Assembly (NCBI GenBank): GCA_937967685.1
Contig: CALBTX010000114.1
Location: 5,570 to 69,569 of the forward strand
Reading direction: 5' to 3'
Source: an uncultured Bacillaceae bacterium
Lineage (GTDB): Bacteria; Bacillota; Bacilli; Caldalkalibacillales; Caldalkalibacillaceae
DNA length: 64,000 bases
In this document: in pieces, positions 4,185 through 40,414 of the stretch
How positions within the stretch are numbered: the first letter of the stretch is position 1
Layout: each line of letters starts with the position of its first letter
Made by a program: the position numbers and the translations under genes
Notes under the pieces: generated by a model
Told to the model about the DNA's origin: nothing
The model's input: the letters and a program-made list of their open reading frames with translations, nothing else
Databases searched by the model: none

Positions 4185-4373
4185 ACCTAGACACATCGGT
4201 CTTTACCTTAAAAATCGATGTCCTTTACGATCCTTCTGTCCCCGTTCAAGCGGTTGACTCGAGGCAGAATACTCGTCAAAAAAGAACGATGCAGTTTTCA
4301 AATGAACGGCATGATGGCCGGTATGGTTCCTTAACGGATACCATCCGCTTTTCATTATATCAGAAATAAGATG

Positions 4374-28125: not shown

Positions 28126-29146
28126 GTTTCAGGGCACCCTTTCTGGATATCATCCGCTGATAATGTTGCTGAACTTTCCCGCTGTCAAGCAATGCTTTGG
28201 CCAGTTGCACGCCTTCAGCCATGTTTTTTGCTTTGCCTCCCACATATAAAGCTGCCCCGGCATTAAAGGCAACGATGTTGTACGCTGCACTGCGATTGTT
28301 TCCGGCAAACACATCGCGGATTATGGCGGCGCTCTGGCTGGCATTTTGAACTTGAATATGTGTAAGAGGATATCGTTTTAAGCCGACTTCTTCTGGAGTC
28401 AGGAGATATTGCCGAATGGTGCCTGCTTTCAATTCGGTCACCCTGGTCGGCCCGGAAATGGATAATTCGTCCAAACCGTCTTCCCCTTTGACAATGAGCA
28501 CGTGACGCGAACCTAATTCCTTTAAGGTTTCGGCAATTTTTAGACTGTAGGCGTCATCATACACGCCGATCACCTGGTTTTTAGCTCCCGCCGGATTGGT
28601 CAGCGGTCCCAGCAGATTGAAAACCGTTCGGAAGCCGATTTCTTTACGGGTCGGGGCGACATGCTTCATCGCTTGATGATAAAGGGGGGCAAACATGAAG
28701 CACATATGATCCGTGCGCAAAGCCTCCCGTATGCCTTCCGCCGATATTTTGACGGGCAACCCGAGTTCTTCAAGGACATCGGCACTCCCGCTCAAACTGG
28801 AAACCGAACGGTTGCCGTGCTTGGCGATATTCAGGCCGGCTGACGAAGCGACAATGGCACTCGCCGTGGAAATGTTAAACGTGTTCGTTCCGTCTCCCCC
28901 TGTTCCACACGTATCAACCACAGGGGCCAAGTCATCGACAGGGACCATTAAAGCATGATCCCTCATCGCTTCAGTTAGACCGATCAATTCTTCCGTTTCG
29001 ATCCCCCTGAAACTCAACAACGTGATAAAACTGCTCATTTGTGACGGCGTCGCTTTTCCTTGCAGAATGATGCGCATCGCCTCATAACTCGTCTTCCTCG
29101 TCAAGATTTCTTTGTTCATCAGTTGACTGAGCACTTTTTTAAACAT
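28118..29146 (-). CDS. trpD: Anthranilate phosphoribosyltransferase
   Basis: DTCGTGGDGTNTFNIST motif. The internal ATG at 29146 overlaps the trpE stop. The 84-codon upstream extension lies inside trpE. Confidence 0.93.
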   Translation of the reverse strand: MFKKVLSQLMNKEILTRKTSYEAMRIILQGKATPSQMSSFITLLSFRGIETEELIGLTEAMRDHALMVPVDDLAPVVDTCGTGGDGTNTFNISTASAIVASSAGLNIAKHGNRSVSSLSGSADVLEELGLPVKISAEGIREALRTDHMCFMFAPLYHQAMKHVAPTRKEIGFRTVFNLLGPLTNPAGAKNQVIGVYDDAYSLKIAETLKELGSRHVLIVKGEDGLDELSISGPTRVTELKAGTIRQYLLTPEEVGLKRYPLTHIQVQNASQSAAIIRDVFAGNNRSAAYNIVAFNAGAALYVGGKAKNMAEGVQLAKALLDSGKVQQHYQRMISRKGALKHA

Positions 29147-30716
29147 GGACCCCATCCCCCTGATTTGTTCGCTCAAAAATTTTTTCGGCCAACTGAACGG
29201 CAACGAGCATCGCTCGAGCTTTATTCCGGGTTTCCTGCCATTCTTTCTCCGGTACGGAGTCAGCGACAATGCCTGCCCCGGCCTGGATATGAGCCTTGCC
29301 GTCATGAACAAAGATCGTTCGAATCGCGATGCAGGAATCATGATTTCCCGAAAACGAAAAATACCCGACCGCGCCGGAATAAGCATGACGTGCGTCATTT
29401 TCCAATTCAGCCACGATTTCCATGGCCCGAATTTTGGGAGCCCCGGTCACTGTTCCCGCCGGGAAACAAGCGAATAAAGCGTCTACGGCATCATGTCCGT
29501 CCTTCATTTGGCCTTCAACAGTGGAGCAAATATGCATGACATGAGAAAATTTTTCAATCTGCATATGTTTAGTGACTTGCACCGTTCCGAACTGAGCCAC
29601 CCGACCGATATCGTTTCGTCCAAGATCAAGAAGCATGTGATGTTCGGCCCGCTCTTTTTCGTCCGCCAGCAGTTCTCTGGCCAACGCTTCATCCTCTTCC
29701 TTCGTTTTTCCTCTCGGCCTTGTCCCCGCGATTGGATTGGTTTCCGCCTTGTTCCCGACCAATTTGACCAGCCTTTCCGGTGAGCTACCGATAATGTTGA
29801 TCCCATCCCCCAAATCGAGATAGTACAGATAAGGAGACGGGTTGACCATCCTGAGCACACGGTATATATTGAACGGATCCGTTTCGATATCGAGGGTGAA
29901 ACGCTGGGACAACACGGTTTGAAAGACATCGCCAGCCCGAATGTATTTTTTGATTTTCTGTACAGATTCAAGGAAAGACTGCCGGTCAAAATTAGAACTG
30001 ACTTGAGACCAATCCACTTGAGGCCGTTCACTCGGAAGATGAAACAGTTCAAATTCATCCTGTTTCAGCCGTTTAAATACGCGATCAATCCGTCTAGAAA
30101 TGTGCGCACACGTTTCTTCGTAACTCAATTTTAATTCCTCTTCGGTTTGTGCCCGGTCCACTCTCAAATGAGAAATAAAGGTGATCTCCTGTTGCAAATG
30201 ATCAAAGGCAATCATTTCGTCGCAAAACATCAAGCGGATCTGATCCTGTTCAAAAATGTCTTGTCTATGTTTCGGAATGTCCTCAACCAACGTTATCGCA
30301 TCATAACCGACGTAACCGATCGCACCTCCGCTGAATGGGGGAAGGTCCAGCTCCTGCGGAACTCTGTACGTTCGCAACAATTTTTTTAAGAGCTCCAAGG
30401 GTTGGTTGCTGACCCGCGAGGCAAACAACTCGTCGGAAAAAAGACTGTCCTTCGCCGGACCATCCGATCGCAGTGGTTCGATATACCCCTTCCCATCGCG
30501 TACGGAAAACACGACAAAGGGTCGATTGCCGATAAACGAATATCTGCCCCACTGTTCGCCGCCTTCGACACTTTCAAGCAAAAAGGAGTAAGCTTCTTTC
30601 ACTTGTTGAAAGAGACGAATCGGAGTTAAATTGTCTGACCATACCTTTCGACTGATCGGAATAAAGGAATACGTGTCTTTCAAACGCAACACTTCTTCAA
30701 AGGAAGGATAAAACAT
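29139..30716 (-). CDS. trpE: Anthranilate synthase component I
   Basis: LLESVEGGEQWGRYSF and GAVGYFSFSGN motifs. ATG at 30716 has a GAAGGGGTG RBS. The longer ORF would run through the attenuator. Confidence 0.95.
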   Translation of the reverse strand: MFYPSFEEVLRLKDTYSFIPISRKVWSDNLTPIRLFQQVKEAYSFLLESVEGGEQWGRYSFIGNRPFVVFSVRDGKGYIEPLRSDGPAKDSLFSDELFASRVSNQPLELLKKLLRTYRVPQELDLPPFSGGAIGYVGYDAITLVEDIPKHRQDIFEQDQIRLMFCDEMIAFDHLQQEITFISHLRVDRAQTEEELKLSYEETCAHISRRIDRVFKRLKQDEFELFHLPSERPQVDWSQVSSNFDRQSFLESVQKIKKYIRAGDVFQTVLSQRFTLDIETDPFNIYRVLRMVNPSPYLYYLDLGDGINIIGSSPERLVKLVGNKAETNPIAGTRPRGKTKEEDEALARELLADEKERAEHHMLLDLGRNDIGRVAQFGTVQVTKHMQIEKFSHVMHICSTVEGQMKDGHDAVDALFACFPAGTVTGAPKIRAMEIVAELENDARHAYSGAVGYFSFSGNHDSCIAIRTIFVHDGKAHIQAGAGIVADSVPEKEWQETRNKARAMLVAVQLAEKIFERTNQGDGVHV

Positions 30717-30830: not shown

Positions 30831-30861
30831 TAAAAAATAAAAACAGGGCCCGGAAGCCCTG
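30831..30861 (-). terminator. trp leader attenuator (intrinsic terminator)
   Basis: On the minus strand: CAGGGC-ttccgg-GCCCTG followed by TTTTTATTTTTT. It lies about 115 nt upstream of the trpE ATG and downstream of the triplet array. Confidence 0.8.
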
Positions 30862-30941
30862 CGCATGTTTCCTTGAAGACATACTTCAAACTTGGGACGA
30901 TCTGCAGTCGTTGCTTTGACCGTCTCAAGTAGAAAGACGTT

Positions 30942-31011
30942 CTCCTGCTAGGCTCTCCTCTGCTCAACTCTCTCCACTTTGCTAAACTCTACTCATGCTT
31001 TAATGCAACTC
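30942..31011 (-). promoter_or_regulatory. TRAP (MtrB) binding site: array of about 11 (G/U)AG triplets in the trp leader RNA
   Basis: Minus-strand RNA reads GAG..AAG cau GAG ua GAG uu UAG caaagug GAG a GAG uu GAG ca GAG ga GAG cc UAG cag GAG. mtrB is present at 40177-40401. Confidence 0.85.
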
Positions 31012-31087: not shown

Positions 31088-31117
31088 ATTTTAACTTAAA
31101 GCATAGGGTGACGTCAA
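31088..31117 (-). promoter_or_regulatory. Putative sigma-A promoter of the trp operon (TTGACG-18-TAAAAT)
   Basis: Minus strand reads cTTGACGtcaccctatgctttaagtTAAAATcc, immediately after the stop of the upstream gene. Confidence 0.5.
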
Positions 31118-31134: not shown

Positions 31135-32865
31135 CTACTTTTTGACACTTTCTTTCTGCTCGGCGGGTTCGTCGCTCCCTCTGTACCGAGCGTACGGCAA
31201 GGGATTCCACGTCCGGTATGCCAAATCTTCTTTGCGCAATGCTGCCGGAATTTCATCCAGAATTTTTTTGGCGGCAGCAAGCTCGCGTTGTGCCTCTTCC
31301 TTGTCCTGGTACATGAATTCATCTGAAGCTGTCTCAGGCGCTTGCGCCACTTTTTCTTCCAAGTCCTCTACAACCATTTTTTGTTGGGATCTCATGGCAT
31401 CGCGGGCTTGCTTTCTCCATTCTGGATGCAGATCACGGTTGGTATCTCCTATTGAACTGAATTCTTCAAACACTTCACTGTAGACGCGATCGGCATTGAG
31501 CCTCACATCCATCACCGCGGCTTCCAAGTCACGTATATTCAGCTCATCAGGGCTTAACGGCACATCGCGCTTCGGACCGCCCAATCTTGTTCTTTCCAGA
31601 TAGAAGGGGAAAGTGCCTTTAACGATTTTGCCTACAGGGGAGATCGACTGCTTGTTTTCGTCAACACCTTTAGGCTGGATGCCCTGCATGGCGATGCGAG
31701 CAGACTCTGGCCGGACGATTTCCTTGGGCGGCAAGATGCCATGGCGCAGCATTTCGCGAATATTCGTTCCCGAGATGTTAATGCGCAAGCTATCATCGTG
31801 GCGGCACGTTTGCACGGTTGCCAGACTCGCACAACGCAGGCAATAGAAAACTTCGTGGAACAGGCGAATATCAATCCCCATTTCTTCCGGGGTAAATTCA
31901 TCGAATATCGAATGGCTGGCATACTTGTCGTAATAGTCCCCGATACCGGCATGGTCACGGCCGATCAGCGCGTGGGTACAACCATAGTTTTTCATGATCA
32001 GCGCGTGCAACACGGCTTCACGGGGACCGGCAAAAATATATGTCACCCTTAACGGAGAAAGAATGGACCGTTCTTTCGGATAATAAGTCTCGATCACACT
32101 CCGATAAGCCAGCATGCGGAATTCATGGCGGGTATACTCTCGTTTGGCCATTTCCACCAGCGGCTGGAGCAGTAAACCGTCAATTTCTTCAAGCGCATTT
32201 CGGTGAATATATTCGTGACCGCGGTGCAAAGGATTGGCACCGGTAATAAATCCGGCAACAGAACGAAACTTCTTATCTTCATAAAATAAATGCCACGTAT
32301 CTTTCGGTTCCATGCGCAATTTTTCAAAAGGACCCCAATTCGCGCGGCGTAATAGTTTCAATGGCCCCCCTAACGCATATTCTCCCATTCGGCGGTAAAT
32401 CGAATCAACACCGGGATGATTGCGATCATTCGTGCCGAAAAGATGGCGCGCGCGCTCTTCCTTATCATAAGCAAATATATCTTCGATTTTAAGGATGGCG
32501 ACCGGCTCTTTCGTGTCATCAGCGAGAGCCACTTCATCTCCAACCGACAGTGATTGAACCACTTCTTGATTGCGCTTGCCTATAGGAGCGAAGCTTAAGG
32601 GAACCGGCCAGATCAGGCCATTACTTAGCCGGCCGTTTTTAAGAACCGATTTGTAATCAGCTTCATTCATAAAACCCTCATTTGGTGATAGAACGCCGGT
32701 GGCAATCATTTCGATCGTGATCACTGCTTCTAAATCAACAACAATCATCGGCAGCTCTTTGGCCCTTGCTAGTTCCTCATCTCTTTCCCGTCCGGTTAAA
32801 ACGGTATTGACTAGTTTCCCGCCGTGTGGCTTCTGCGGATAGTTGGCAAACAGTGCTTGATCCAT
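31135..32865 (-). CDS. ATP-sulfurylase-fold protein (Sat-like) with a variant active-site loop and a roughly 180-aa uncharacterised C-terminal extension
   Basis: PHGGKLVN PUA-like N-terminus, HRGHE, AGPREAVLHA, IGRDHAG, and a CxxC...CxH zinc knuckle. The canonical QTRNP loop reads ITGANP. The tail has no P-loop. RBS is GGGGAGGAG. Confidence 0.85.
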   Translation of the reverse strand: MDQALFANYPQKPHGGKLVNTVLTGRERDEELARAKELPMIVVDLEAVITIEMIATGVLSPNEGFMNEADYKSVLKNGRLSNGLIWPVPLSFAPIGKRNQEVVQSLSVGDEVALADDTKEPVAILKIEDIFAYDKEERARHLFGTNDRNHPGVDSIYRRMGEYALGGPLKLLRRANWGPFEKLRMEPKDTWHLFYEDKKFRSVAGFITGANPLHRGHEYIHRNALEEIDGLLLQPLVEMAKREYTRHEFRMLAYRSVIETYYPKERSILSPLRVTYIFAGPREAVLHALIMKNYGCTHALIGRDHAGIGDYYDKYASHSIFDEFTPEEMGIDIRLFHEVFYCLRCASLATVQTCRHDDSLRINISGTNIREMLRHGILPPKEIVRPESARIAMQGIQPKGVDENKQSISPVGKIVKGTFPFYLERTRLGGPKRDVPLSPDELNIRDLEAAVMDVRLNADRVYSEVFEEFSSIGDTNRDLHPEWRKQARDAMRSQQKMVVEDLEEKVAQAPETASDEFMYQDKEEAQRELAAAKKILDEIPAALRKEDLAYRTWNPLPYARYRGSDEPAEQKESVKK

Positions 32866-32899
32866 TATGTTTCTCCTCCCCGTGAATCTTATTGAGTAT

Positions 32900-33196
32900 T
32901 TATCGCCTTTGATTTGCTGAACATAAACGGTACTTCATTAAATGGATATGAAAAATGGCGATCGGTATGAAATGTTTGTTAGATGGTGTCAGAGACAAAA
33001 CTTCCCGTTCTATTAAAATGATGAAAGAAATCGGAAACGCTTTCACATCTGTAAAAAGATTCGCCAAGAGCATGCGCATGCTTTGACTGTCATGTTCGTT
33101 TTGCACGAAGATTATTTTTAATTCGATATTAACATTTTTGGCCCAGTTAGAAAAGAGGGCAATTTTTTTAAAAAAAGGAAGTGTAAGTTTAATCAT
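32900..33196 (-). CDS. Small AT-rich ORF (98 aa from the ATG at 33196), possibly a highly diverged AroH-type chorismate mutase relic
   Basis: The ORF stays open through about 35% GC DNA, which is unlikely by chance. AAGGTGA RBS. There is weak spacing-conserved similarity to B. subtilis AroH (MI(R/K)..., KII-12-MLL-9-FP). The catalytic Arg residues are not conserved. Confidence 0.4.
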   Translation of the reverse strand: MIKLTLPFFKKIALFSNWAKNVNIELKIIFVQNEHDSQSMRMLLANLFTDVKAFPISFIILIEREVLSLTPSNKHFIPIAIFHIHLMKYRLCSANQRR

Positions 33197-33272
33197 TGGT
33201 TTTAGCTCACCTTTTGCATCAGGTTCACGAAGAGACACCTCTATCAGTTAAATGCATCAATGAATGCTTTCT

Positions 33273-34373
33273 TTATTTAGCTGAAGACCACGCTTTGACG
33301 ATCAAAGCAGGTTCCACATCCCGAACCAATTCAGCCCGTCCGATTTCAGGCATCAGCACTAGATTCAGTGCGTTGCCCACCGCTTTTTTATCGGCATACA
33401 TTTTATCAATCACTTGCTGGACATCCCAGGGCAGTTGCTGCCATGAAACGGGAAGACCGTATGCTTCGAGCAAGCGTATCACCTGTTCGGCCAAATCGTT
33501 TTTCTCGTACACATATTCACTCACTTTGGCGGCCAAGACCATTCCGATGGAAACGGCTTCCCCGTGAGTCAAAGCGCCATATTTCCCCAGCGCTTCAAAA
33601 GCATGGGCAAATGTATGACCATAATTCAAGATGGCCCGCCTTCCCTGCTCCTTTTCATCTTCAGCCACGACAGCACTTTTGATTGCACAGGCCCGGCCGA
33701 TCGCTTTAGAGATGTAAGGCTCTTCCAGAGCCAAACATGGCTTGCGATAGATCCACAACCATTCAGCGAAATCCGCATCCTGAATAAAGGCATGTTTAAG
33801 CACTTCGGCAAAGCCGGACCGGATTTGTCTTTTTGGTAAAGTGGCCAGCGTTTTCGTATCATAAATGACTGCCAACGGCTGATAAAAAGCGCCGATTAAA
33901 TTTTTGCCCAATGTATGGTTGATGGCCACCTTCCCTCCCACGCTGCTGTCATGAGCCAAAAGGGTTGTCGGCAGCTGGACAAAGGGGATGCCGCGCATAA
34001 ACGTGCTGGCCACAAAGCCGGCCAAATCACCGACCACGCCTCCGCCCAAGGCCAAGACGACGCTTTTCCGATCCAGCTTTTGTTCGAGGGCATAGGTGAT
34101 CACTTGTTCATACACCTGTAAGGATTTGGATGATTCTCCCGCGGGCACGGCATATCGCCAAACTGAATAGCCGGCGTCTGCCAGTCTTTGCTGGAGTCCA
34201 TGGCCGTAAAGAGCGTCAACCTGCTCATCGGTGACGATCAATAACTTCCGGTTTGTATCGATAGGCAGCCGCTGTAAATAAAAAGCGATGTTAGCTAGCA
34301 GATCATCTCCGATCCAGATCGGGTAAGCCTTCTCCCCCAAAGGTACGGTTAAAGATTGGACGGTTGTTCCCAT
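33273..34373 (-). CDS. aroB: 3-dehydroquinate synthase
   Basis: GGGVVGDLAGFVA motif and metal-binding histidines (GHTFAHA...HGEAV). Confidence 0.95.
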   Translation of the reverse strand: MGTTVQSLTVPLGEKAYPIWIGDDLLANIAFYLQRLPIDTNRKLLIVTDEQVDALYGHGLQQRLADAGYSVWRYAVPAGESSKSLQVYEQVITYALEQKLDRKSVVLALGGGVVGDLAGFVASTFMRGIPFVQLPTTLLAHDSSVGGKVAINHTLGKNLIGAFYQPLAVIYDTKTLATLPKRQIRSGFAEVLKHAFIQDADFAEWLWIYRKPCLALEEPYISKAIGRACAIKSAVVAEDEKEQGRRAILNYGHTFAHAFEALGKYGALTHGEAVSIGMVLAAKVSEYVYEKNDLAEQVIRLLEAYGLPVSWQQLPWDVQQVIDKMYADKKAVGNALNLVLMPEIGRAELVRDVEPALIVKAWSSAK

Positions 34374-40176: not shown

Positions 40177-40401
40177 TTAAGTTTCATCCCCAGATTCAAT
40201 CTGACCATGCCGGGTGTATATCATCGCCTTCCCCCTGATTTTTATCGCTGACGTATGTTCCGTAAATTGAGCAATCATCACTTCGTGCTTGTCCAATTTT
40301 TCAGAATGATGGAAGCGGGTATCCTTACCACGGGTCAGACCGATCACGTTCACGCCGTCCTCTTTCGCCTTAATCACGACATAATCATTCAAATGTTCCA
40401 T
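40177..40401 (-). CDS. mtrB: trp RNA-binding attenuation protein (TRAP)
   Basis: 74 aa. DYVVIKA...[34 protein letters not shown] matches TRAP. It lies downstream of folE, as in the mtr operon. Confidence 0.95.
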
Positions 40402-40414
40402 GTCACGTTCTCCC

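Follow-up and report, generated by a model that had tools for sequence, protein, structure and literature searches.

The window analysed here, a 64,000-nucleotide stretch of DNA from an uncultured Bacillaceae bacterium (contig CALBTX010000114.1), encodes a 576-aa protein of the ATP sulfurylase (sulfate adenylyltransferase, Sat) family. The coding sequence lies at 31135..32865 (-), with an ATG start and its stop codon at 31135-31137, in the midst of aromatic amino acid genes. The protein differs from the canonical enzyme in an anion-binding loop that has lost its arginine and in a C-terminal tail of approximately 180 aa. As judged from the alignments, the tail and the loss of the Arg are features not of one protein but of a broad, conserved clade with members in Bacillales, Acidobacteriota and Archaea. 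The best explanation, judged somewhat more likely than not, is that this is a long-form Sat-family adenylyltransferase which would still catalyse the reaction ATP + sulfate <-> adenosine 5′-phosphosulfate (APS) + pyrophosphate (PPi) with a rewired pocket, and whose insertion between the aro and trp genes would be accidental.

An initial annotation, made by a model from the sequence, had described the N-terminal 390 aa or so as divergent but ATP-sulfurylase-like, and Pfam, PDB and Foldseek searches agree. The PUA-like N-terminal domain (aa 12-173; 32347..32832 (-)) matches PF14306 (PUA_2) at 1.2e-46. The catalytic domain together with domain III (aa 182-393; 31687..32322 (-)) matches PF01747 at 1.4e-68 and the structures 8a8d and 1v47 in Foldseek. 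The motifs listed in the annotation, PHGGKLVN, HRGHE, AGPREAVLHA, IGRDHAG and a CxxC...CxH Zn knuckle, are each found in the protein. The knuckle, C342-x2-C345...C354-x-H356 of domain III (31798..31842 (-)), occupies invariant columns and coincides in the alignment with the Zn site of the enzyme from M. thermolithotrophicus. The NCBIfam model NF003166, a Sat subfamily, scores 405.9 bits, above its cut-off of 387. The model of the bifunctional Sat/APS kinase, NF004040, aligns to aa 11-399 only and gives 254 bits against a cut-off of 669.

The closest PDB sequence is the ATP sulfurylase (ATPS) of M. thermolithotrophicus, 8a8d, at 2.8e-79. This enzyme is biochemically active and has been described as a classic ATPS which keeps all critical residues (Jespersen et al. 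2023). An AlphaFold model of the window protein, built with a 107-sequence alignment, has a mean pLDDT (predicted local distance difference test) of 83. When it was compared with known structures by Foldseek, aa 1 to ~395 matched ATP sulfurylases with a target TM-score of 0.92-0.94 (for 8a8d, E 5.7e-43 and TM-score 0.92). The combination of PUA-like domain and ATP-sulfurylase fold that marks the homo-oligomeric Sat is present by both Pfam and Foldseek. The HxxH and GRDHAG motifs are also in place. The nucleotidyl-transferase motif H214-R-G-H217 (32215..32226 (-)) and the GRDHAG motif G302-G307 (31945..31962 (-)) are invariant in the 107 clade members and match the canonical sequences.

A further signature of the enzyme, the QxRN loop with its sulfate-binding Gln and Arg, is not found. 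FITGANP stands in its place, and the six residues ITGANP (aa 207-212; 32230..32247 (-)) replace the canonical QTRNP. In the pairwise alignment with 8a8d, FQTR-NVPHLGHE is set against FITGANPLHRGHE. Both sulfate-binding side chains are absent, with Ile in place of the Gln, Ala in place of the Arg and an extra Gly as the one inserted residue. This change had been noted in the initial annotation, and the alignments to 8a8d and to canonical Sat bear it out. To our knowledge, the QxRN arginine is conserved in all characterised ATP sulfurylases, and it is kept by every canonical Sat in the alignment (A4) used for comparison.

Close homologues of the protein, with 73-89% identity and 565-595 aa, are common in Bacillales, in genera which include Pueribacillus, Sporosarcina, Virgibacillus, Ornithinibacillus, Oceanobacillus, Lederbergia, Fredinandcohnia and Siminovitchia. 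A single full-length match to the tail led to a wider set of proteins of 550-630 aa, which are 45-51% identical over their whole length including the tail. These come from Acidobacteriota (Polarisedimenticolia), Hydrothermarchaeales, Methanosarcinales and other groups. In the 107-sequence alignment (A2) the loop reads FITGANP in 52 members, FQT-ANP in 54 and FQTRNP in one, and so the Arg of the QxRN loop is replaced by Ala throughout the clade. The sole FQTRNP sequence, P0242 (550 aa), was taken from a 2.2-kb JGI metagenome contig. Its N-terminal half is canonical (FQTRNPVHRAHE, GETKGDD loop) and is joined at GRDHAG to a tailed C-terminal half of the clade type. It looks like a chimera, produced either by assembly or by natural recombination.

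No variation is seen at T208, N211, H214, R215, H217, GRDHAG or the Zn ligands across these 107 sequences from three phyla or domains. Several regions near them are remodelled relative to canonical Sat in A4. HRAH has become HRGH, and a WGPFE insertion is present. The canonical G-E-T-K-x-D-D loop is replaced by E-(M/T)-(A/T)-(K/R)-R-x-Y-x-R-x-E-F, in which R246 is specific to the clade. In the window protein this loop is VEMAKREYTRHEFR (aa 237-250; 32116..32157 (-)), and it contains positions 239-241, which discriminate the two subgroups. The VFPAAM strand has changed to PLRVT(Y/M), with the gain of an invariant Arg. Two remodelled loops near the anion loop carry new invariant arginines, R246 and R273.

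The conserved C-terminal tail (aa 396-576; 31138..31680 (-)) opens with the motif QGIQPKG and matches no known domain. The initial annotation described it as helical, acidic and not an APS kinase, and this was upheld. Its isoelectric point is 5.1, no P-loop is present, and three long helices are predicted by AlphaFold at aa 444-473, 482-508 and 522-538. No significant Pfam family was found for aa 396-576, and the best E-value against PDB sequences was 0.13. A tail-only model (pLDDT 70), which forms a helical bundle, gave a best Foldseek E-value of 2.2 against PDB folds, and the alignments of the full-length model to ATP sulfurylases stop before the tail. An APS kinase or another known domain was thus rejected as the identity of the tail, as no P-loop, no Pfam or NCBIfam match to APS kinase and no PDB match were found. 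When 1.84 billion representatives were searched with the tail alone, only 59 matches were returned, and each of these is a member of this family, either complete or as a fragment.

The tail has 21 invariant positions, among them QGxQPKG, FPxY, R433, D446, R455, Y462, Q495, K505, Q520, E524, E528 and RxWN. Between the subgroups with the ITGANP and QT-ANP loops it is 45% identical, against 46% for the PUA-like domain, and is therefore equally conserved. At 16 positions the two subgroups have different fixed residues, and only one of these positions (513) falls in the tail, which argues that both subgroups have the tail in common as a module that does not determine specificity. Its role may be a structural one, in the assembly of oligomers, in regulation or in closing the active site. 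From the 16 positions it may further be inferred that the ITGANP anion pocket has co-evolved into a more hydrophobic version.

Six of the seven QT-ANP contexts inspected are sulfur operons. In three archaeal lineages the order is aprA-aprB-sat(-TusA) followed by AsrC/Dsr-like genes, in one or two copies, together with an FrhB-like gene. The archaeal AprA scores 747 bits on the equivalog NF005331, whose cut-off is 557. At another locus the stop codon of cysH overlaps the sat start, and the CysH encoded there shares 49% identity with one from Bacillales. A further cluster reads sat-tauE-JAB-thiS-PALP-PALP-thiS-thiF. At one more locus thiF is followed by a thrC-like gene, which overlaps the start of sat and shares 56% identity with a PALP gene from the sat-tauE-JAB-thiS cluster. 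The remaining context, in Acidobacteriota, has no sulfur-gene neighbours. A contiguous Sat-AprAB-AsrC cluster in Hydrothermarchaeota was noted independently by Kato et al. 2019 (PMC6759336), who proposed that it reduces sulfate.

The substrates of AprAB and CysH are APS or 3′-phosphoadenosine 5′-phosphosulfate, so these contexts argue that APS is made or used by the tailed, Arg-less enzymes. Neither the tail nor the loss of the Arg is therefore incompatible with sulfate/APS chemistry. In nine listed members, namely P0222, P0225, P0231, P0238-P0240, P0243, P0244 and P0248, the protein ends in an extra TusA domain (PF01206, with its Cys-Pro motif). The TusA-fused members are archaeal (loci L083, L084 and L171) and lie between aprAB and the AsrC/Dsr-like genes. 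This fusion suggests that Sat may be linked to a sulfur relay.

In the mechanism proposed for the window protein, AMP would be transferred from ATP to sulfate, giving APS and PPi. The anion would be held by the rewired pocket in place of the classical Gln/Arg pair, and R246 or R273 may compensate for the lost loop Arg. It is also conceivable, though improbable, that the protein serves as a non-catalytic or regulatory scaffold which binds ATP or APS, with the real function borne by the tail, for example as an interaction module. The absent QxRN arginine and a conserved tail of no known domain would fit such a role. In addition, the inactive ATPS-like domain of the Thiobacillus denitrificans APS kinase (3cr8), which is among the structure matches, shows that the ATPS fold can turn non-catalytic. 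However, all 107 sequences keep HxxH, GRDHAG, T208 and N211 unchanged, which would not be expected of a degenerate site. The partners of the QT-ANP form, aprAB and cysH, also require an enzyme that forms or consumes APS, and no second sat is present in those clusters. The resemblance to 3cr8 is limited to an ATPS fold without the canonical active-site residues; the match is weak (1.6e-14), and HxxH and GRDHAG are kept in the window protein.

Several observations weigh against sulfate activation by the ITGANP subgroup, to which the window protein belongs. The loop Gln is lost here as well as the Arg. The score on the equivalog domain TIGR00339 is 317, just under the cut-off of 322.95. Most of the 16 subgroup-separating positions lie in or near active-site loops (207-209, 221, 239-241, 276, 278, 291, 300), and the ITGANP residues at the separating positions are more hydrophobic, which fits a changed pocket. 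Unlike the canonical Bacillales sat, which lies within a yezD-cysH-cysP-sat-cysC-sir operon, and unlike the QT-ANP relatives, the ITGANP gene was adjoined by cysH, cysP, cysC, sulfite reductase, cobA or apr genes at none of approximately 160 loci.

These points may instead indicate that the ITGANP subgroup is a neofunctionalised adenylyltransferase, a reading that is possible but clearly the less expected. ATP binding and PPi release would be kept, and the acceptor would be an oxyanion other than sulfate or a small organic acid. Under the same tentative proposal the pocket would be more hydrophobic and the product would be used by enzymes encoded elsewhere. The loss of both sulfate-contacting side chains with the inserted Gly speaks for this, as do the residues that distinguish the subgroup, I207, G209, M239-A240-K241, Y276 and F278, which cluster in active-site loops. 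In its fuller form, which is likewise rather unlikely, ITGANP would be a derived branch adenylylating a non-sulfate acceptor, and the ancestral QT-ANP branch would still be an ATP sulfurylase, one that does without the Arg and works alongside AprAB, CysH and TusA. Against a changed acceptor stands the ~50% identity to QT-ANP members in apr and cysH operons, with the tail and every other invariant residue common to both. No other pathway context recurs across the clades, and the NCBIfam score is still over the Sat subfamily cut-off.

The initial annotation had argued for a substrate other than sulfate on two grounds. The altered anion pocket stands, the argument from the aro operon does not, and a non-sulfate substrate persists as a minority possibility for the ITGANP subgroup. 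Ordinary Sat homologues with the same loop and tail in cys operons had been named there as the finding that would speak against the proposal. What was found goes part of the way: tailed, Arg-less QT-ANP homologues (~48-51% identity) do occur in sulfur operons, but their loop is not ITGANP. The retention of sulfate as acceptor, with a rewired pocket, is the preferred reading.

The position of the gene in the window is as the initial annotation described it, between aroB and the trp promoter and co-oriented with both. This was confirmed by Pfam on an almost identical public contig (ENA ERZ794971). The gene order there is spoIVA, hbs, folE, TRAP (TrpBP), hepS, menH, hepT, ndk, cheR, chorismate synthase, 3-dehydroquinate (DHQ) synthase, the Sat-like gene, trpE, trpD, trpC, trpF and trpB, with the genes from chorismate synthase to trpB co-oriented. 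The B. subtilis supraoperon has the order aroF-aroB-aroH / trpEDCFBA-hisC-tyrA-aroE and is controlled by TRAP attenuation. The gene order around the insertion point is the same in both, and the window also has a TRAP gene, a (G/U)AG leader and an attenuator. It differs from B. subtilis in that a Sat-family gene and a 407-nt AT-rich spacer occupy the aroH position, where an AroH query found no aroH remnant.

In view of this position, a role of the protein in aromatic amino acid metabolism was considered. It could replace AroH, for example by means of an AroQ-like helical tail, or adenylylate an intermediate of the shikimate pathway. Such a role is very improbable. The co-orientation between aroB and the trp leader, the lack of a predicted terminator upstream and the failure of the AroH query to detect a homologue in the 64-kb window would be in keeping with it. 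However, the arrangement is confined to one of ~161 loci. The survey of contexts covered close homologues at 80 genome loci, where flanks of up to 10 kb on either side were included, and at 80 metagenome loci. Aro or trp neighbours were found at 0/80 of the former and 0/80 of the latter, and only the window's own contig shows the arrangement. The orthologue of the closest named relative, Pueribacillus theae (89% identity), lies between an extracytoplasmic function (ECF) sigma/anti-sigma pair and a major facilitator superfamily (MFS) transporter, and its homology to the window is confined to the coding region. The tail is conserved where the gene adjoins unrelated genes. It was also ruled out as an AroQ chorismate mutase, with an hhalign probability of 0.2%, no Pfam CM_2 match and no Foldseek match.

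A functional link to aro/trp is largely refuted by the 160 other loci and by the P. theae locus, and the inference drawn from the aroH slot falls with it. The slot between aroB and the trp promoter is a lineage-specific rearrangement and is uninformative on function. Insertion by a mobile element was considered and set aside, as no direct or inverted repeats flank the gene and there is no homology to the P. theae locus beyond the coding region. The Sat-like gene would probably be transcribed by read-through from the aro promoter, and perhaps also from a promoter of its own.

The features around the gene are as follows. A strong ribosome-binding site, GGGAGGAG, read from the sequence, lies 7 nt 5′ of the ATG (32873..32880 (-)). 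The upstream neighbour is aroB, encoding 3-dehydroquinate synthase (33273..34373 (-); Pfam DHQ_synthase on the public contig). The aroB/Sat-like spacer of 407 nt (32866-33272) is AT-rich and has no Rfam match and no predicted terminator. Its sole long open reading frame (32900-33238; 112 aa, GTG start) looks spurious. A possible promoter of the gene itself is an extended -10-like element, TGTTAATAT, 269 nt 5′ of the ATG (33126..33134 (-)). S-box and T-box riboswitches were sought with Rfam in the spacer and in the downstream leader, and none was found at the gathering threshold or at E<=5.

On the other side, a trp promoter-like site, TTGACG-18-TAAAAT (31088..31117 (-)), starts 18 nt past the Sat-like stop codon. 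It is followed by (G/U)AG triplet repeats (30942..30997 (-)), typical of a TRAP-binding trp leader, and by an attenuator-like terminator stem with a T-run ahead of trpE (30843..30862 (-)). The downstream neighbour trpE (29139..30716 (-); Pfam Chorismate_bind) encodes 525 aa from an ATG at 30716. The promoter-like site, the repeats and the terminator indicate that a TRAP-type trp leader starts directly 3′ of the Sat-like gene. The TrpBP (TRAP, mtrB) gene, of 74 aa, is also in the window at ~40178-40402 (-), adjoining folE, which is consistent with the (G/U)AG leader and attenuator 5′ of trpE. Sulfur-assimilation genes had been noted as missing from the vicinity, and real Bacillales probes for CysH, CysP, CysC, SiR and CobA found none in the 64-kb window. 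The only Rfam family in the window is the pan motif RF01749 at 4232-4347 (-), with 45.4 bits, above the gathering score; it is presumably 5′ of pantothenate biosynthesis genes.

The neighbours of other ITGANP genes differ by clade and have no common theme. They include lytS-lytT-DUF485-actP, an SAICAR-synthase-like gene with diaminopimelate (DAP) dehydrogenase (ddh), ytfJ, brnQ, MFS transporters, a 2-hydroxyacid dehydrogenase and others, and a more distant ITGANP member adjoins mevalonate-pathway genes. A conserved partner gene for the ITGANP form was rejected on account of this variation. An apparent enrichment of an ATP-binding cassette (ABC) ATPase cluster near ITGANP genes proved to be an artefact of pooling unrelated ABC systems. 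In six Sporosarcina loci (L006, L009, L025, L026, L029, L034) a CysK/CysM-like PALP gene, with an ABC-transporter ATPase after it, lies downstream of the homologue at a distance of 4-8 kb. This PALP is 50% identical to the sulfur-cluster PALP of L172, and unrelated genes on the opposite strand lie between it and the Sat-like gene.

Extended -10-like elements were found 60-83 nt 5′ of the ATG in 17/80 homologous loci against 3 expected, and many orthologues appear to have their own promoter. CodY-box-like sequences (AATTTTCWGAAAATT, <=3 mismatches) occur in 22/81 upstream regions against ~4 expected from shuffles, a count that is confounded by shared ancestry and AT-richness and was left unused. 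In the upstream regions of L001-L080 these boxes lie at ~-75 to -110 relative to the ATG, and the distance is similar in several clades. When a Cytobacillus Sat was used as the query for a canonical sat in the ITGANP genera, the best 120 matches were from other genera. The genome of Bacillus sp. JJ1533 has two paralogous ITGANP-type genes (L061 and L069) on different contigs and in different contexts. ITGANP-type genes 68-75% identical to the window protein are also present in an Arenibacter latericius DSM 15913 contig (L075), labelled Bacteroidota, and in NZ_CP081281.1 (Phaeobacter inhibens), an alphaproteobacterial 16.7-kb 'plasmid' record. The Arenibacter copy has no Shine-Dalgarno sequence. 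The two records represent either horizontal transfer or contamination.

Among the known systems, the canonical homo-oligomeric Sat (EC 2.7.7.4; 8a8d, T. thermophilus 1v47 and Bacillales sat) has in common with the protein the PUA-like domain, the catalytic domain and the Zn-binding domain III, as well as HxxH, GRDHAG and AGPREA, at 35-41% identity. The window protein differs in the replacement of QTRNP by ITGANP and of HRAH by HRGH, in the exchange of the G-E-T-K-x-D-D loop and the VFPAAM strand, in the extra conserved 180-aa tail and in the position of its gene outside a cys operon. In fungal Sat (1i2d, 1g8f), which ends in an APS-kinase-like allosteric domain, and in the bifunctional Aquifex Sat/APS kinase (2gks), the Sat core is likewise extended at the C-terminus, by ~170-200 aa, and the total length is similar. 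In contrast to these, the tail of the window protein has neither a P-loop nor an APS-kinase match and is predicted to be all-helical. The Sat of the Hydrothermarchaeota Sat-AprAB-AsrC cluster (PMC6759336) belongs to the same tailed, Arg-less clade, at ~48-50% identity. It has the FQT-ANP loop, often a TusA fusion, and lies in sulfur operons, whereas the window protein reads FITGANP, lacks TusA and is encoded away from sulfur genes.

Literature searches found neither the clade nor its loop or tail described. The Arg of QxRN is regarded as a hallmark of ATP sulfurylase, yet it is lost in a large clade of hundreds of species spanning Bacillales, Acidobacteriota, Hydrothermarchaeales and Methanosarcinales. 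Roughly 260 species have the ITGANP form. The members are all annotated by pipelines merely as "sulfate adenylyltransferase" despite the conserved extra domain. The case also indicates that position within a well-known operon can mislead where the arrangement is not conserved. If the clade does activate sulfate through a different pocket, the structural definition of ATP sulfurylase would have to be broadened. The calling of sat in sulfur-cycle metagenomics would also be affected, as the archaeal Sat-AprAB-AsrC clusters depend on this protein. If, instead, the solitary Bacillales branch has switched substrate, a new adenylate-forming reaction would be hidden by routine annotation.

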